From positions 435-64,434 of the forward strand of contig CAZPAO010000010.1 in assembly GCA_964584665.1 (NCBI GenBank): 64,000 bases of DNA, written 5' to 3'. Below the pieces are notes generated by a model. It had not been told where the DNA came from, did no database searches, and was given only the letters and a program-made list of their open reading frames with translations. Positions 11,956 to 20,841 of the stretch are shown here, one piece after another. The DNA comes from an uncultured Gammaproteobacteria bacterium. Its GTDB lineage: Bacteria; Pseudomonadota; Gammaproteobacteria; Natronospirales; REEB76. The position numbers and the translations under genes were made by a program. Positions within the stretch are counted from its first letter, which is position 1. Every line of letters begins with the position of its first letter.

Positions 11956-13212
11956 TTGTTCAGTCTCGGGGCCCTGGGCCGCAATACCTTGTGGATGATC
12001 CTGGGCCAGGGTGCGCGCATCCTGGTGCAATTCGTCTACTTCATCCTCATCGCCCGCACCCTGCACCGGGATGGCTACGGCGCCTTCTCCGGAGCGGTGG
12101 CGCTGGTGGCGGTGCTGGCGCCCTTCGCCGGCTGGGGCAGCGGCAACCTGCTGGTCAAGAATGTGGCGCGGGCGCCGGAGCACTTCCGCACCTACTGGGG
12201 CCGAGCGCTCACGGTGCACCTGCTGAGCGCCGGTGCGCTGACGCTGCTCGCTCTCCTCCTCGCGCACCTGGTGTTGCCTGCGGCGGTCCCCCTCACCATG
12301 GTGCTGTGGATCGCCATCGCCGACCTGCTCTTCACGCGCTTGCTGGACACCTGCTATCTCGCGTTCCAATCGGTGCAGCGCCTGTCCCGGACCGCCGTCC
12401 TGGGCGTGCTGTTCGCCCTGGCACGGCTAGGGAGCGTCTTCTTGCTGCTCCAAGTGAGGACAGAAGCGGCGCTCGTCACCTGGGCGCTGTTCTATCTCTA
12501 CGCCACGATCGCGGCGGCTGCCATCGGCGTCGCCTGGGTATCGCTGGAACTCGGTATGCCGCGTTGGGACATGCGCGGCTGGCGCCGGGAATCCGGCGAG
12601 GGTTTCTACTTCGCCTCGAGCTTGAGCGCCCAACGCATCTACCTGGATAGCGATAAGGCGCTGCTCACGCGCCTGGGTTCGCTGGAAGCGGCAGGCATCT
12701 ATACCGCGGCAGCGCGCATCGTCGAGGTGGCCTTCATCCCGGTCTATTCGCTCCTGGCAGCGGCCTATGCGCACTTCTTCACCTCCGGCCAGCAGGGCGT
12801 GCGGGGCACCCTGGCACTGTCGAAGCGCCTGCTGCCCTATGCGCTCGGCTATGCCGTGGCGGCGGGCATAGGGCTCTATTGCCTCGCACCGCTCTTGCCC
12901 TGGCTCCTGGGCGCCGAGTTCTCTGAATCCGTGACTGCGATGCGCTGGCTTGCGGCGGTACCGCTGCTCATGACGTTGCATCGTTTCGCCGCCGAATCGC
13001 TCACCGGTGCCGGCTGGCAGTCGACCCGCACCCACATCGAGTTCGGTGCCGCCGGCATCAACGTGGTGCTCAACATCATCGTCGTGCCGATCTATTCCTG
13101 GCGTGGGACTGCCGCCATCACCATCGTCACGGAAGTGTTGCTGGTGATCGCTCTCGGGATCGCGCTCCGCGGCATCGCCCGTTCGGCCCGAGGGCATGAG
13201 GCTCGGACGTGA
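11956..13212 (+). CDS. MOP-superfamily (Wzx-like) oligosaccharide flippase
   Basis: About 12 predicted TM segments. The N-terminus 'LGRNTLWMILGQGARILVQFVYFILIARTL' is typical of polysaccharide-biosynthesis/Wzx proteins. TTG start at 11956, 5 nt after a GAGGAG Shine-Dalgarno (11945-11950). The upstream part of the ORF (from 11830) looks like Arg/Pro-rich non-coding read-through. Confidence 0.65.
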   Translation: MFSLGALGRNTLWMILGQGARILVQFVYFILIARTLHRDGYGAFSGAVALVAVLAPFAGWGSGNLLVKNVARAPEHFRTYWGRALTVHLLSAGALTLLALLLAHLVLPAAVPLTMVLWIAIADLLFTRLLDTCYLAFQSVQRLSRTAVLGVLFALARLGSVFLLLQVRTEAALVTWALFYLYATIAAAAIGVAWVSLELGMPRWDMRGWRRESGEGFYFASSLSAQRIYLDSDKALLTRLGSLEAAGIYTAAARIVEVAFIPVYSLLAAAYAHFFTSGQQGVRGTLALSKRLLPYALGYAVAAGIGLYCLAPLLPWLLGAEFSESVTAMRWLAAVPLLMTLHRFAAESLTGAGWQSTRTHIEFGAAGINVVLNIIVVPIYSWRGTAAITIVTEVLLVIALGIALRGIARSARGHEART

Positions 13213-14198
13213 GCGGCGCTCCACGCATCCGGCGCAGCGACCGTTTCGCCGTCTTCTGGGGCGGTGGTCTGGGGGACATCCTGGCCTTGCGCCCCTTGCT
13301 GCAAGCGCTGGAAGGGACTCTGGACCGGCCGCCGGACTTCTTCACCACGGCGACTCACCTGCAGGGCTTGTTCCAGGAGTTGGGTCTACGGGTCACGCCG
13401 CACATCCTGCCCGCGCAGCCGTTCCCGGCGCTCAAGCTGTTCCGGGACCTCGGCGTGCGGTTCGACTGGCTCTACCTCGGCGCCTATCCACGCATCAAGA
13501 CACGCATGCTCGCCCATGTGGTGGGCGCCGGGCGCATCTGGAGCAGCCGGCATCCGGACGCCGATGCTTTCATCGGCGAACAGGTGCTGGCGGATGTGCG
13601 TGCCTTGGGGCTCGCCACCGATGGTCAGCCCTATGGCGGCGGCGCAGGCATGCCCCGCGCGTCGGCGGCGTCGCCCCCGGATTACCTGCTGTTCCATCCG
13701 GGTGCGAAGGCCCGCTGGGAGACCACCCGGTGGGCCGCCGACCATTGGCGGGCTTTGCTGCAGCAAGTGCTGGAGGCATCCGCGACGGACGTGATGCTGG
13801 TGGGCGTGGAAGCGGAACGTGGCGGCCTCGAAGCGCTACAGCAGGGGCTCGAGCCGAACCTGCGTGGGCGCACGCACATATCGACCCAGTTGCCGCTGGC
13901 GGGCTTGGTCTCTGCGGTGGAGCGCAGCCGGGGCGTGGTCTGCCACAACTCCGGCATCCTGCATCTCGCCGCTCTGCTGGGGCGGCCTACGGTTGCGATC
14001 ACGGGTTCTTCGGCTCGCTTCTGGCGCCCGCCGTATCCGCATGTGCAGAACGTGACATCCGGCGCCTGTGAGCTGGCCTGCAACCAATACCGCTGCCCGG
14101 TGCCCTTCTACCGCGCCCGCTGCATCCGCGAGCTGGGTGTGGAGCAGGTGCTGGCCGCGGTGCTGCCCATGCTCACTCTCAAGACCGCCGCGCGCTGA
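13209..14198 (+). CDS. Glycosyltransferase family 9 (heptosyltransferase-like)
   Basis: GT9 pattern: 'GGGLGDILALRPLLQAL', 'LLFHPGAKARWETTRW...HWRALL' and 'LAGLVSAVERSRGVVCHNSGILHLAALLGRPTVAI'. The GTGA start overlaps the flippase stop. Confidence 0.7.
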   Translation: MSGAPRIRRSDRFAVFWGGGLGDILALRPLLQALEGTLDRPPDFFTTATHLQGLFQELGLRVTPHILPAQPFPALKLFRDLGVRFDWLYLGAYPRIKTRMLAHVVGAGRIWSSRHPDADAFIGEQVLADVRALGLATDGQPYGGGAGMPRASAASPPDYLLFHPGAKARWETTRWAADHWRALLQQVLEASATDVMLVGVEAERGGLEALQQGLEPNLRGRTHISTQLPLAGLVSAVERSRGVVCHNSGILHLAALLGRPTVAITGSSARFWRPPYPHVQNVTSGACELACNQYRCPVPFYRARCIRELGVEQVLAAVLPMLTLKTAAR

Positions 14199-15372
14199 TC
14201 AGCCCTTCATAGAGCGCGCGGTAGCGTTCTGCCACATCCTGCCAATCGTAGGCCTCGATCACTTGCTGTCGGCCTGTGGCGGCGGTCGATCGTGCCATTT
14301 CCGGTTCGGCCGACATGCGCTCTATGCACCCCGCGAGAGCGACGGCATCACCAGGCGTGAACAGCAAGCCGGTCTCTCCATCCCGCACCACTTCGCTCAC
14401 CGCCGGCAGGCGACTAGCGATCACCGGGCAACCGCAGGCGAGCGCTTCCAGGGGCACCAGACCCATGCCTTCTTGTTGCCCCTTGGAGCCCAGTAGGGAG
14501 GGGAAAACCAATGCTGCCGCCCGGCGATAGAACTCCGGCAAGGTATCGTTGGGCAATGCACCCAGGAACTCCACTTGCGGTGTGAGCTCCAGAGCCTGCA
14601 CGAGCGATCGCAAGTCCGTTTCGGCCGGGCCGGTACCGATGATCTTCAAGTGCGGATGCAGGCCCCGGGCCTGCAATGCTGCCAGGGCATGCAATAGCGT
14701 CTGTACGCCCTTGTCCTGCACCAGCCGCCCTACATAGAGCAGGCCATCCCGCGACGCACCTGCGACGGGCGGTGTGAAGTGTCGCGTATCTATGCCCATG
14801 GGCAGGATCCGTGGAACGAGGCCGGGGAGGAGATTCACGGCCTTCGCGCCGAGCGCGCCGCTCACCACCGTCACCGCATCGGCGTGCGCCAGGGCATGGC
14901 GCTTGAAAGGCCGCGCCCAGGGGGCATCCAGCGCGAAGAGATCCGAGCCGTGGCTGGTGCAGAGCAGCGCGCGCGCACCCTTGAGCCGTGCACCGATGAA
15001 GCCGTGGGGTACGGCCCAATGGGCGTGGATGAGGGCGTAATCTTCCTGTCGCAGCAGTCGCGAGCCAGCGAGATACTCCGCGGTTAACAGCGGCAATAGG
15101 CCGGCCGCGCGCCAGGGATATCGGCGCAGGCCCGGCAGCATGCCGCCGCCGTAGGCCAGGGTCTCCATGCGTTCCGGCAGATAACGGAAACGATGCATAT
15201 GCACGCCATCCAGTTGCTCCTCGACCGCGCTGCCGGGTGCGTGGGGTGCAAGCACGTGCATCTCGAACCAGGCGGTCAGCCGGCGCGTGAGTTCGTGCAC
15301 GAACGGCGGCACGGTCGCATCTCCCGCGTAGCGCGGGTAGGTCGAGGTGAGCACCAGGATGCGGCGCTGCAC
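14179..15372 (-). CDS. Glycosyltransferase family 4 (GT-B, RfaG-like)
   Basis: 397 aa with 'ILVLTSTYPRYAGD' and the C-terminal EX7E region 'EGMGLVPLEALACGCPVIAS...E'. Its 3' end overlaps the GT9 gene convergently by 20 bp. Confidence 0.85.
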   Translation of the reverse strand: MQRRILVLTSTYPRYAGDATVPPFVHELTRRLTAWFEMHVLAPHAPGSAVEEQLDGVHMHRFRYLPERMETLAYGGGMLPGLRRYPWRAAGLLPLLTAEYLAGSRLLRQEDYALIHAHWAVPHGFIGARLKGARALLCTSHGSDLFALDAPWARPFKRHALAHADAVTVVSGALGAKAVNLLPGLVPRILPMGIDTRHFTPPVAGASRDGLLYVGRLVQDKGVQTLLHALAALQARGLHPHLKIIGTGPAETDLRSLVQALELTPQVEFLGALPNDTLPEFYRRAAALVFPSLLGSKGQQEGMGLVPLEALACGCPVIASRLPAVSEVVRDGETGLLFTPGDAVALAGCIERMSAEPEMARSTAATGRQQVIEAYDWQDVAERYRALYEGLISARRS

Positions 15373-15382
15373 TCGGTCCCCG

Positions 15383-20296: not shown

Positions 20297-20317
20297 CAGC
20301 TTGGATTCAGGGGCCCG

Positions 20318-20350
20318 AAAAAACTATGCCCCGCACGAGGCGGGGCATAG
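20318..20350 (-). terminator. Rho-independent terminator downstream of pilA
   Basis: On the minus strand: an 11-bp perfect stem CTATGCCCCGC/GCGGGGCATAG (20324-20334 and 20340-20350), a 5-nt loop, then a TTTTTT run (20318-20323). It lies 27 nt after the pilA stop. Confidence 0.75.
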
Positions 20351-20376
20351 CTCCCATTCGGGAAACGACCCAGCTA

Positions 20377-20841
20377 TTAAGGAGCGCTGGCGTCGCGGCA
20401 CGAGGCCGGCAGATACTTCTCGTCGACCGGGCTGGCGGAACCGACGCCGCAATGCCAGGTGTTGCCACCGTCGGTGGTCCAGAGTTCGACGCTCTTGGAC
20501 TTGATGTTGGCATTGACGCCGCCATCACGCATCGTGGCCAGGATGCCAGCGGTGCTGCCCGAGTTGCCGACCATCTTGACGATGGACACATAGCGGCCGA
20601 CCGGGCCGACGCTGGTGGCGGTGCTGTACACGGAGATCAGCGCCGTGGGCCAGCGGCTGTTGTTCTGGTAGAACTCGGACAGGCCGACTTCGCCGCCGCC
20701 GGCGAGCTGGATGCCTTCCGACATCTGCGAGCGGGCGATGTAGTCCTGGTACGCCGGGATGGCGATGGCCGCCAAGATGCCGATGATCGCGATCACGATC
20801 ATCAATTCGATCAGGGTGAAGCCCTTCTGCAACGTCTTCAT
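20377..20841 (-). CDS. pilA: Type IVa major pilin
   Basis: '[34 protein letters not shown]' is a short class-III leader followed by the conserved hydrophobic N-terminus. C-terminal disulfide loop Cys131...Cys148. GAGGAG Shine-Dalgarno upstream. Confidence 0.95.

Follow-up and report, generated by a model that had tools for sequence, protein, structure and literature searches.

We have analysed a 64,000-nucleotide (nt) stretch of DNA (the window) from an uncultured rhizosphere gammaproteobacterium, in which the interval of about 9 kb between the type IVa pilus genes pilB and pilA holds six sugar-handling genes. From the list of open reading frames (ORFs) and searches of Pfam and NCBIfam, these encode a wzx-type flippase, glycosyltransferases of families GT9, GT4 and GT2, and two paralogues of 652 and 651 amino acids (aa), here called GT-C1 and GT-C2, each of which combines a predicted GT-C membrane domain with tetratricopeptide repeats (TPR). 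The best reading of the interval, by analogy with described systems, is that of a TfpW-type pilin O-glycosylation locus built on GT-C enzymes resembling those of the TMTC/PMT group; its core, namely that the pilin would be glycosylated by the GT-C enzymes from a lipid-linked donor made by the GT2 enzyme, we place at a probability of roughly 0.65. It is common for pilA to be associated with a GT-C/TPR gene and the gene of an ordinary GT2 lipid-sugar synthase, and the arrangement seen here between pilB and pilA is far beyond chance, recurring as it does in dozens of independent genomes.

Linkage of the GT-C genes to pilA

A scan of a collection with one genome per species recovered 546 stretches that encode relatives of the GT-C proteins, and the locus counts given below are drawn from the best 80 of these, onto each of which the window proteins were mapped. 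All 80 come from Gammaproteobacteria (Dokdonella, Rudaea, Rhodanobacteraceae, Acidiferrobacterales, Ectothiorhodospiraceae, Competibacteraceae, Sedimenticolaceae and Thiomargarita) or Betaproteobacteria (Undibacterium, Rhodoferax, Gallionella, Sulfuricella and Nitrosomonadales). Their habitats are soil, rhizosphere, groundwater and saline settings, and the cultured carriers include Dokdonella soli JCM 15421, Rudaea sp. 3F27F6 and Undibacterium sp. TJN25. Of the loci, 66 extend far enough upstream to be judged, and in 62 of these the first GT-C gene has a pilin gene in the same orientation, fewer than 600 nt upstream of it. A GT2 gene whose product is 50–86% identical to that of the window follows within 1.5 kb downstream in 52/62 loci, and in several more it is found some kilobases beyond that; 25 loci have more than one GT-C gene. 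The sequence-only reading of this DNA, which preceded our analysis, had connected the island with the pilin by its position, and that connection is no longer a single case, with the pilin still the presumed acceptor.

What follows the GT2 gene is far more varied. Among 139 ORFs taken from the 6.5 kb that follow GT2 in 35 diverse loci, methyltransferases are the commonest (23), accompanied by GT4 enzymes (17), further GT2 enzymes (12), sulfotransferases (7), LPG_synthase_TM proteins (6), flippases of the MOP superfamily (Polysacc_synt 8, MurJ 4, MatE 5), nucleotide-sugar dehydratases and aminotransferases. GT4-type genes follow GT2 in many unrelated loci; in locus L093, for example, the order is pilS-pilR-pilA-GT-C-GT2-GT2-GT2, and further on there are genes for a methyltransferase, a MurJ-like flippase and a GT4 enzyme 44% identical to that of the window. 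A metagenome-assembled genome (MAG) of the Natronospirales with 41% GT-C1 identity has two pilin genes, two GT-C genes and GT2, and then genes for dTDP-deoxy-amino-methyl sugars that replace GT4 and GT9. The linkage counts and the varied downstream cassettes together point to a conserved core of pilA, GT-C/TPR and GT2 genes, followed by a lineage-specific glycan-building cassette.

Some of these loci have features of their own. Natronospirales MAGs (L008, and also L009, L018 and L019) carry toxin-antitoxin pairs within the pilin-glycosylation locus; in L008 a PemK toxin gene and a small ORF lie between pilR and pilA (7981–8552), and PhdYeFM antitoxin and PIN toxin genes between the second GT-C gene and GT2 (14461–15176). 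Locus L092 (3670–11062) has a pilin gene and a single GT-C/TPR gene with no GT2, and LicD and cytidylyltransferase genes about 4 kb away could point to a phosphocholine-type decoration instead of a sugar.

Organization of the pilB–pilA interval

The features of the locus, with the evidence for each, are as follows.

9989–11746, reverse strand: pilB, type IVa pilus assembly ATPase, left border (TIGR02538, 828.9 bits against a cut-off of 675.65; Pfam T2SSE and MshEN)
11956–13212, forward strand: Wzx-like MOP-superfamily flippase (Pfam Polysacc_synt, 87.9 bits against a cut-off of 28.2; about 10–12 hydrophobic segments)
13209–14198, forward strand: GT9-family glycosyltransferase of GT-B type, no transmembrane (TM) segment (Pfam Glyco_transf_9, 58.1 bits against a cut-off of 22)
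14179–15372, reverse strand: GT4-family glycosyltransferase of GT-B type, predicted cytoplasmic (Pfam Glycos_transf_1, 129.9 bits; Glyco_transf_4, 56 bits)
15383–16252, reverse strand: GT2, putative polyprenyl-phosphate glycosyltransferase (lipid-phosphate-sugar synthase; Pfam Glycos_transf_2, 94.7 bits)
16299–18254, reverse strand: GT-C2, predicted GT-C/TPR paralogue 2, 651 aa (paralogy to GT-C1; family-invariant residues)
18338–20296, reverse strand: GT-C1, predicted GT-C/TPR paralogue 1, 652 aa, directly downstream of pilA (AlphaFold2 model, fold search, TPR profile matches)
20318–20350, reverse strand: hairpin resembling an intrinsic terminator between pilA and GT-C1 (read from the sequence and a scan listing)
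20377–20841, reverse strand: pilA, type IVa major pilin, 154 aa (Pfam Pilin, 63.4 bits; N_methyl, 39.4 bits)
20910–20925, reverse strand: sigma-54-type promoter upstream of pilA (TGGCAT-N5-TTGCA, read from the sequence)
21038–22384, reverse strand: pilR, two-component regulator of pilA, right border (Pfam Response_reg, Sigma54_activat and HTH_8)
22387–24132, reverse strand: pilS, two-component regulator of pilA, right border (Pfam 6TM_PilS, HisKA and HATPase_c)

All six genes named in the sequence-only reading are thus present between pilB and pilA, and its gene calls were right. The left flank of the locus also holds pilD and pilC, and pilR and pilS make up the right flank. The start of the flippase gene is uncertain: it probably lies close to 11956, within an ORF that opens at a TTG at 11830, and the gene calls in relatives are of about 417 aa. 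Its stop overlaps the start of the GT9 gene by 4 nt, and these two form a unit of their own on the opposite strand, divergent from pilB. The GT4 gene is the last of the pilA-side operon and converges on the GT9 gene with an overlap of 20 nt.

The same earlier reading found neither an initiating phosphoglycosyltransferase nor a PglL/O-antigen-ligase-type gene, and we agree: no phosphoglycosyltransferase and no Wzy_C/PglL-type (O-antigen-ligase-like) gene occurs in the island or among the scanned ORFs of the window. No heptose-synthesis gene was found among these ORFs either. Genes of the D-arabinofuranose pathway, for the phosphoribosyltransferase (PRTase), DprE1 and DprE2, are absent from the island and the window, where a GT2 synthase is present instead.

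The GT-C/TPR paralogues

GT-C1 and GT-C2 are 37% identical over their full length (E = 4e-106). Searches of Pfam, NCBIfam and PDB sequences, with single sequences and with profiles, left the N-terminal 430 residues of both unmatched and returned TPR matches only, and none of 32 family members matched Pfam DUF1736, PMT or PMT_2 at E <= 1. The C-terminal 220 residues match TPR proteins, with E-values down to 8e-19 in the profile search. An AlphaFold2 model of GT-C1 built with 32 homologues (mean predicted local distance difference test score, pLDDT, 87.5; predicted template-modelling score, pTM, 0.87) has 11 TM helices and a C-terminal helical-repeat domain. The helices were assigned by combining the model with a hydropathy profile and the positive-inside rule, which together predict a cytoplasmic N-terminus, basic cytoplasmic loops at residues 228–237, 339–344 and 393–399, and a periplasmic TPR domain.

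A Foldseek search of the PDB with the full-length model returned TPR proteins only, and a separate model of residues 1–432 (pLDDT 79.6) was used for a fold search with the membrane domain. Its top 10 matches are all GT-C proteins, among them STT3, ArnT (5f15), AglB, Pmt1-Pmt2 and PglB, with probabilities of 0.96–1.00 and template-modelling scores of up to 0.53; EmbC appears at rank 45, and unrelated transporters have probabilities of no more than 0.23 throughout.

The conserved residues point in the same direction. D39-D40, R74-P75, K209-E210 and E371-H372-R373-x-Y375 are invariant in the family, and their contexts (F-V-F-D39-D40, L-R74-P75-L-S, C-K209-E210-T-A-A-L and F-E371-H-R-N-Y375) vary little or not at all; F-V-F-D39-D40, a DDx motif in predicted periplasmic loop 1, is found in 100/100 family members. 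The human enzymes TMTC1-4 have motifs M1 (DD), M2 ((S)HKSYRP), M4 (KE(T/Q)xxT) and M7 (ERxxY), described as metal, sugar and phosphate sites (PMC7801869). The invariant residues of our family correspond to these four of the seven TMTC motifs and all lie in predicted periplasmic loops; M3 and M5 have no clear counterpart. Both paralogues keep every family-invariant residue. The models therefore confirm, as far as structure prediction can, that these two proteins, whose membrane domain is without Pfam annotation, are GT-C enzymes with a TPR domain, as the sequence-only reading had proposed.

The membrane domain belongs to a very large superfamily, with 74,457 clusters (at 50% identity) at E <= 1e-3 and 9,944 at E <= 1e-30. 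The names borne by relatives in protein databases are uninformative ('TPR repeat protein', 'protein O-mannosyl-transferase', 'glycosyltransferase family 2/9').

A probable lipid-linked sugar donor

The GT2 protein has the motifs DDGSSD (D41-D42) and DADGQH (D88-A-D90) and two C-terminal hydrophobic helices (residues 214–232 and 259–277), and so has the make-up that characterizes polyprenyl-phosphate glycosyltransferases, a GT-A-type GT2 domain with DxD and, C-terminal to it, two TM helices. Its nearest solved relatives in the PDB are ArnC, the dolichyl-phosphate-mannose synthase (DPMS) of Pyrococcus, and GtrB. The best curated family in NCBIfam is AglJ, an archaeal dolichyl-phosphate-hexose synthase (134.8 bits over the full length against a cut-off of 325), and there are lesser scores for PpgS (95.8 against 370), ArnC (64.9 against 529) and PgfS (56.4 against 500). 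The flippase, a polytopic membrane protein that scores above the Polysacc_synt threshold, has the attributes of Wzx/MOP proteins.

Systems composed of a lipid-phosphate-sugar synthase, a MOP/MATE flippase and a GT-C enzyme are established, and such flippases carry lipid-phosphate-monosaccharides too (PMC11194591). The window has all three components, GT2, Wzx and two GT-C proteins, in one 9-kb interval, and the lipid-carrier route suggested by the sequence-only reading holds in its core on the gene identities and the GT-C/TPR fold.

We propose that GT2 would load undecaprenyl phosphate (Und-P), at the cytoplasmic face of the membrane, with a sugar (probably a hexose) that it takes from a nucleotide sugar; that in this clade GT4 and GT9 would probably extend the lipid-linked sugar on the cytoplasmic side; that the Wzx-like flippase would move the lipid-linked glycan to the periplasmic face; and that the two GT-C/TPR enzymes would glycosylate Ser/Thr residues of the pilin in the periplasm ahead of its assembly, probably dividing the work by site, or between priming and extension. 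The extension by GT4 and GT9 is the least certain of these steps, and we give it about even odds.

The place of GT4, GT9 and the flippase

In NCBIfam the GT9 protein falls far below the cut-offs of all heptosyltransferase equivalogs, the best being heptosyltransferase II (56.5 bits against 134.6). About 110 relatives are found at E <= 1e-45, followed by a gap, and lipopolysaccharide (LPS) heptosyltransferases appear only at E of about 1e-7. Membership of family GT9 itself holds, but by these comparisons the protein belongs to a subfamily distinct from the LPS-core heptosyltransferases, and the earlier description of it as normally an LPS-core enzyme needs to be amended. Its homologues of at least 50% identity on long contigs each share the contig with a GT-C1 homologue, suggesting that GT9 has been co-inherited with the locus over deep divergence; relatives at 38–44% identity sit in ordinary polysaccharide clusters. 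We also considered GT2, GT4 and GT9 as a conserved trio outside pil loci and ruled this out, as the 289-aa GT2 and the GT4 beside a GT9 relative in L090 are not orthologous to those of the window.

These observations bear on two other accounts of the cytoplasmic enzymes. The first takes wzx, GT9 and possibly GT4 to be an LPS or exopolysaccharide (EPS) module lodged beside pilB, with the pilin receiving single sugars or homopolymers made from the GT2 product by the GT-C enzymes, as in TfpW, PMT and TMTC systems. We regard this as possible though rather doubtful. It would fit the placing of wzx and GT9 in a two-gene unit of their own, their occurrence in only 3/80 loci, all of the window's clade, the lack of wzx in the otherwise identical islands L006 and L007, the more distant GT9 relatives unlinked to pil genes, and the use of lipid-phosphate-monosaccharides by GT-C enzymes of the same motif class. 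The constant company of the closer GT9 homologues and GT-C1 homologues argues the other way, as does the recurrence of GT4-type genes and MOP flippases downstream of GT2 in unrelated lineages; moreover, two or three genes without an initiating enzyme, a polymerase or a ligase cannot by themselves make a polysaccharide.

The second account has two donors. A housekeeping phosphoglycosyltransferase encoded elsewhere would start an oligosaccharide on undecaprenyl diphosphate (Und-PP), which GT4 and GT9 would extend, Wzx would flip and one GT-C enzyme, serving as an oligosaccharyltransferase, would transfer en bloc to the pilin, and the other GT-C enzyme would use the Und-P-sugar made by GT2 to add a side sugar on the periplasmic side, in the manner in which AglD/AglS of Haloferax and the Gtr systems add one from a lipid-phosphate sugar. 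Wzx flippases classically carry Und-PP-oligosaccharide units, two anciently separated GT-C paralogues have been maintained, the best fold matches include the en bloc oligosaccharide transferases STT3, AglB and PglB, and both GT4 and GT9 have relatives in ordinary polysaccharide clusters. We nonetheless consider this account unlikely: the phosphoglycosyltransferase that it needs is lacking from the island and the scanned ORFs, the invariant motifs are shared with the TMTC/ArnT group, whose members use monosaccharides, and most related loci have a single GT-C gene and GT2 without wzx or GT9, which argues that the ancestral system runs on the GT2 product alone.

Returning to the proposal that GT2 makes the donor, it can be taken further, and with much less assurance. 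The triad of pilA, GT-C/TPR and GT2 might be a large bacterial counterpart of TMTC-type O-glycosylation in eukaryotes, dedicated to type IV pilins, and in this clade an oligosaccharide might be built on undecaprenyl monophosphate, started by the AglJ-like GT2, extended by GT4 and GT9, flipped by Wzx and delivered by the two GT-C/TPR enzymes. This extended form is speculative and, in our judgement, somewhat improbable; if true, it would be an archaeal-style en bloc route for bacterial O-glycosylation that needs neither an initiating phosphoglycosyltransferase nor a PglL-type ligase.

The pilin, its promoter and the terminator-like hairpin

The PilA leader is predicted to be cleaved after G7, and the sequence has a C-terminal disulfide loop and a tail, RDASAP. 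A Ser/Thr cluster lies at S63–S70 (mature numbering) in the alpha-beta loop. An alignment of clade pilins (L004–L014; window 20590–20650) shows an invariant SVYST in this loop followed by a stretch of variable length rich in Ser, Thr, Ala and Pro, which we take to be the region of the sugars at Thr64 and Thr66 of the Pa5196 pilin; PilE of Neisseria is glycosylated at Ser63. The Ser/Thr-rich loop would be the most likely site of glycosylation here. A tail of 5–8 residues past the last cysteine is seen in the clade pilins, and pilins of other lineages are without it.

The sigma-54 promoter of pilA is of the textbook type, and pilR, which encodes a sigma-54 activator, is directly upstream. Inverted repeats rich in TGTC/GACA lie between pilR and this promoter (window 20990–21018) and resemble the PilR binding sites described for Pseudomonas aeruginosa. 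Downstream of pilA is a hairpin (20350–20318, reverse strand) with a perfect 11-bp stem (CTATGCCCCGC / GCGGGGCATAG), the loop CTCGT and then T6, and GT-C1 starts 80 nt past pilA in the same orientation. An equivalent hairpin and T-run separates pilA from the GT-C gene in 54 of the 61 related loci scored for it. P. aeruginosa is among the species in which pilin accessory genes are known to follow the pilin gene and a hairpin in this way (PMC11841053). By our proposal, transcription would run from the sigma-54/PilR promoter of pilA, with the hairpin letting only a fraction of transcripts reach the transferase genes.

The locus is present in metagenomic DNA runs. Contigs of soil and rhizosphere metatranscriptomes pile up on the conserved N-terminal pilin-coding segment (window 20732–20925) at a word depth of 1,700–9,300, drawn from many organisms, and few pieces are near-identical to the pilA of the window.

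A further account is that the enzymes act not on the major pilin but on minor pilins, for example, or on some different protein of the periplasm or outer membrane or a glycan, with the linkage to pilA reflecting no more than shared regulation. The pilin is put forward on position and analogy, a few loci have no pilin gene nearby, and the superfamily of the membrane domain is so large that it surely serves many acceptors. This seems to us very unlikely, however, given a pilin gene directly upstream of GT-C in nearly all loci across two proteobacterial classes, a layout of pilA, hairpin and accessory gene that matches known pilin accessory genes, the fast evolution of GT-C1 and its TPR domain alongside a variable pilin, and the fact that TfpW and TfpO, encoded in the same position, are proven pilin glycosyltransferases. 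The major pilin remains the acceptor that we favour.

Evolution of the locus

Between the window and L007, identity is 93% for PilC, 92% for PilB, 82% for PilR, 74% for GT2, 73% for PilA, 61% for GT9, 58% for GT-C2, 50% for GT4 and 44% for GT-C1, which is the fastest-evolving protein of the locus, GT-C2 being the more conserved of the two paralogues. A relative with 69% GT-C1 identity has an identical island, and those at 55% (L006) and 44% (L007) have the same island without wzx. In both of the latter, genes for a flippase of Polysacc_synt/MatE type and a 350-aa GT2 protein (L006 1–2313; L007 1–2373) are found about 8 kb off, beyond nadE and sucCD, and may be a displaced part of the same system.

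The sequence-only reading spoke of an island inserted into a slot that is usually strain-variable. Neither description survives comparison with relatives: gene order is kept where GT-C1 is 44–69% and PilB 91–96% identical, and the GC content (0.63–0.69 in the island and 0.60–0.69 in the flanks) carries no signature of a horizontally acquired island. By these comparisons the locus is ancestral in the clade and not a recent insertion, only wzx and GT9 being clade-specific. In a neighbour-joining tree of membrane domains, GT-C2 groups with the second copies of Natronospirales-type loci and GT-C1 lies near the first copies, which places the duplication before the split from those loci; it is therefore old, and the two copies have been retained since.

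The TPR domain diverges faster than the membrane domain, with mean identities to GT-C1 of 37% and 52% respectively, and faster divergence of this domain has also been reported for TfpW homologues. Such a pattern in GT-C1 and its TPR domain is expected if the enzyme tracks a variable pilin surface, and the TPR domain would then hold the pilin as a recognition module.

Comparison with known systems

TfpW, the group IV pilin arabinosyltransferase of P. aeruginosa Pa5196/PA7 (P. paraeruginosa), decorates the pilin with oligomers of D-arabinofuranose, and its gene comes directly after pilA. It is a GT-C protein for which 11 TM helices are predicted; loop 1 bears a DDx motif, and the C-terminal TPR domain is periplasmic. 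Kus is said to have found in 2008 that the pilin of this system is glycosylated at Thr64/Thr66 of the alpha-beta loop and at Ser residues. The window GT-C proteins resemble TfpW in their position after pilA, the DD motif in the first periplasmic loop and the predicted combination of about 11 TM helices with a periplasmic TPR domain, and the two loci are alike in having a lipid-phosphate-sugar donor and a small accessory gene set. They differ in the source of that donor, a GT2 polyprenyl-phosphate glycosyltransferase here and, for TfpW, the decaprenyl-phospho-arabinose route from phosphoribosyl pyrophosphate (PRPP) through the PRTase, DprE1 and DprE2, and also in the presence here of two GT-C paralogues, a GT4, a GT9 and Wzx and in the absence of TfpX. 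Contrary to the sequence-only reading, a co-located donor synthase does not set the window apart, since donor genes accompany pilA-tfpW in Pseudomonas indica and Kingella denitrificans; it is the kind of donor pathway that differs. In the loop equivalent to that of TfpW, 89/100 GT-C family members have Y-X6-P-X8-H-x-D, in which only the Y-X6-P of the TfpW motif is kept. None of the species named as TfpW carriers is among the best 80 of the 546 loci, and a tblastn search of plasmids, made as part of this comparison, gave no matches.

With the eukaryotic TMTC1-4 and PMT proteins the window enzymes share an N-terminal 11-TM GT-C domain followed by C-terminal TPR (the order of TMTC), the motifs M1 (DD), M2 (..RP..L..LN), M4 (KE[T]) and M7 (E[H]RxY), and an acceptor that is Ser/Thr of a secreted or membrane protein, the pilin being presumed here. 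A lipid-phosphate sugar supplied by a GT2 of the DPMS/GtrB/ArnC class is a further likeness, which extends to the actinobacterial Ppm1/Pmt system. The window proteins differ in being bacterial and periplasmic and in having no DUF1736, PMT or PMT_2 match.

A synthase, a flippase and a GT-C enzyme are likewise encoded together in the GtrA/B/C, ArnC-ArnE/F-ArnT and Und-P-ribofuranose systems (Kelly et al., 2024), but these decorate LPS or O-antigen and have neither a TPR domain nor an extra cytoplasmic GT-B enzyme.

The N-glycosylation system of Haloferax volcanii is of interest as AglJ is the best curated match of GT2. In this archaeon a dolichyl-phosphate hexose is extended by soluble glycosyltransferases and a methyltransferase, flipped, and transferred by a GT-C enzyme, and the Wzx-like AglR and a second GT-C protein, AglS, add the final sugar. 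The methyltransferase is a further likeness, methyltransferases being the commonest neighbours in the related loci. The archaeal system differs in its N-linkage, in its transferase of the AglB/STT3 family and in its acceptor, an S-layer protein, and extension on a monophosphate carrier is only hypothesized for the window locus.

In the Pgf system of Streptococcus mutans (PgfS, PgfM1, PgfE and PgfM2), a GT2 lipid-phosphate-sugar synthase and two GT-C enzymes modify surface adhesins. The window has the same complement of one GT2 and two GT-C proteins, and PgfS is among the NCBIfam matches of GT2; the streptococcal system is Gram-positive, has no TPR domains and acts on Cnm and WapA.

TfpO/PilO occupies the same slot after pilA and glycosylates pilin, but it and PglL have the Wzy_C/O-antigen-ligase fold and use Und-PP-linked O-antigen units made elsewhere. 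As a Wzy_C-type enzyme is absent from the island and the scanned ORFs, we exclude the PglL/TfpO route. Ogt, the cyanobacterial pilin glycosyltransferase, was considered as a relative and ruled out, being a cytoplasmic GT41 enzyme.

Weighing the proposal

Several results count against the view that the locus is a TfpW-type pilin glycosylation system using a GT2-made donor. The E-values of the membrane-domain fold search are marginal, at about 0.015, and the assignment of the GT-C fold thus relies on the consistency of the matches together with the motifs. GT2 is below every curated equivalog cut-off in NCBIfam, so that its sugar cannot be named from the scores. The TfpW motif YX6PFX7P of periplasmic loop 4 is found in 0/100 GT-C family members, and we accordingly call the locus TfpW-like and do not file it as a member of the TfpW family, the likeness being drawn from the published description of TfpW. 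In three of the 66 loci the fetched flank is without a pilin gene, ten of the 62 lack a nearby GT2 gene, and metatranscriptome contigs cover pilA-like sequence with the GT-C genes essentially uncovered. As for the extension step, the action of GT4 and GT9 on the GT2 product is something that we only infer, and GT-C enzymes of the ArnT/PMT/TMTC type normally use lipid-phosphate-monosaccharides and not oligosaccharides.

Pilin glycosylation has been known from two kinds of enzyme, the ligase-like PglL/TfpO and a single studied GT-C protein, TfpW, which depends on an arabinofuranose pathway in one Pseudomonas lineage. The best 80 of the 546 loci carry interchangeable glycan cassettes for methylation, sulfation and deoxy-amino sugars and, if the proposal is confirmed, would widen the known repertoire of bacterial protein O-glycosylation. 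TMTC-type enzymes, no solved structure of which came up in our sequence and fold searches, would gain a tractable model in bacteria, and the loci would account for part of the diversity of pilin surfaces that bears on the interactions of phages with their hosts in environmental communities. Glycosylation of the pilin confers protection from pilus phages (PMC11841053), and by analogy with P. aeruginosa the likely benefit of the modification would be to mask the pili from pilus-specific phages and from other surface recognition. The cultured carriers (Dokdonella soli, Rudaea sp. and Undibacterium sp.) make the model directly testable.

Remainder of the window

The rest of the window is core chromosome, with lpxC, secA, zapD, coaE, sucCD, nadE, bamD, rluD, clpB, arginine biosynthesis genes and aspS. 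Genes for a helix-turn-helix (HTH) regulator with a WYL domain (39937–40914) and a GGDEF diguanylate cyclase (42097–43254) lie among these housekeeping genes and are unrelated to the locus.

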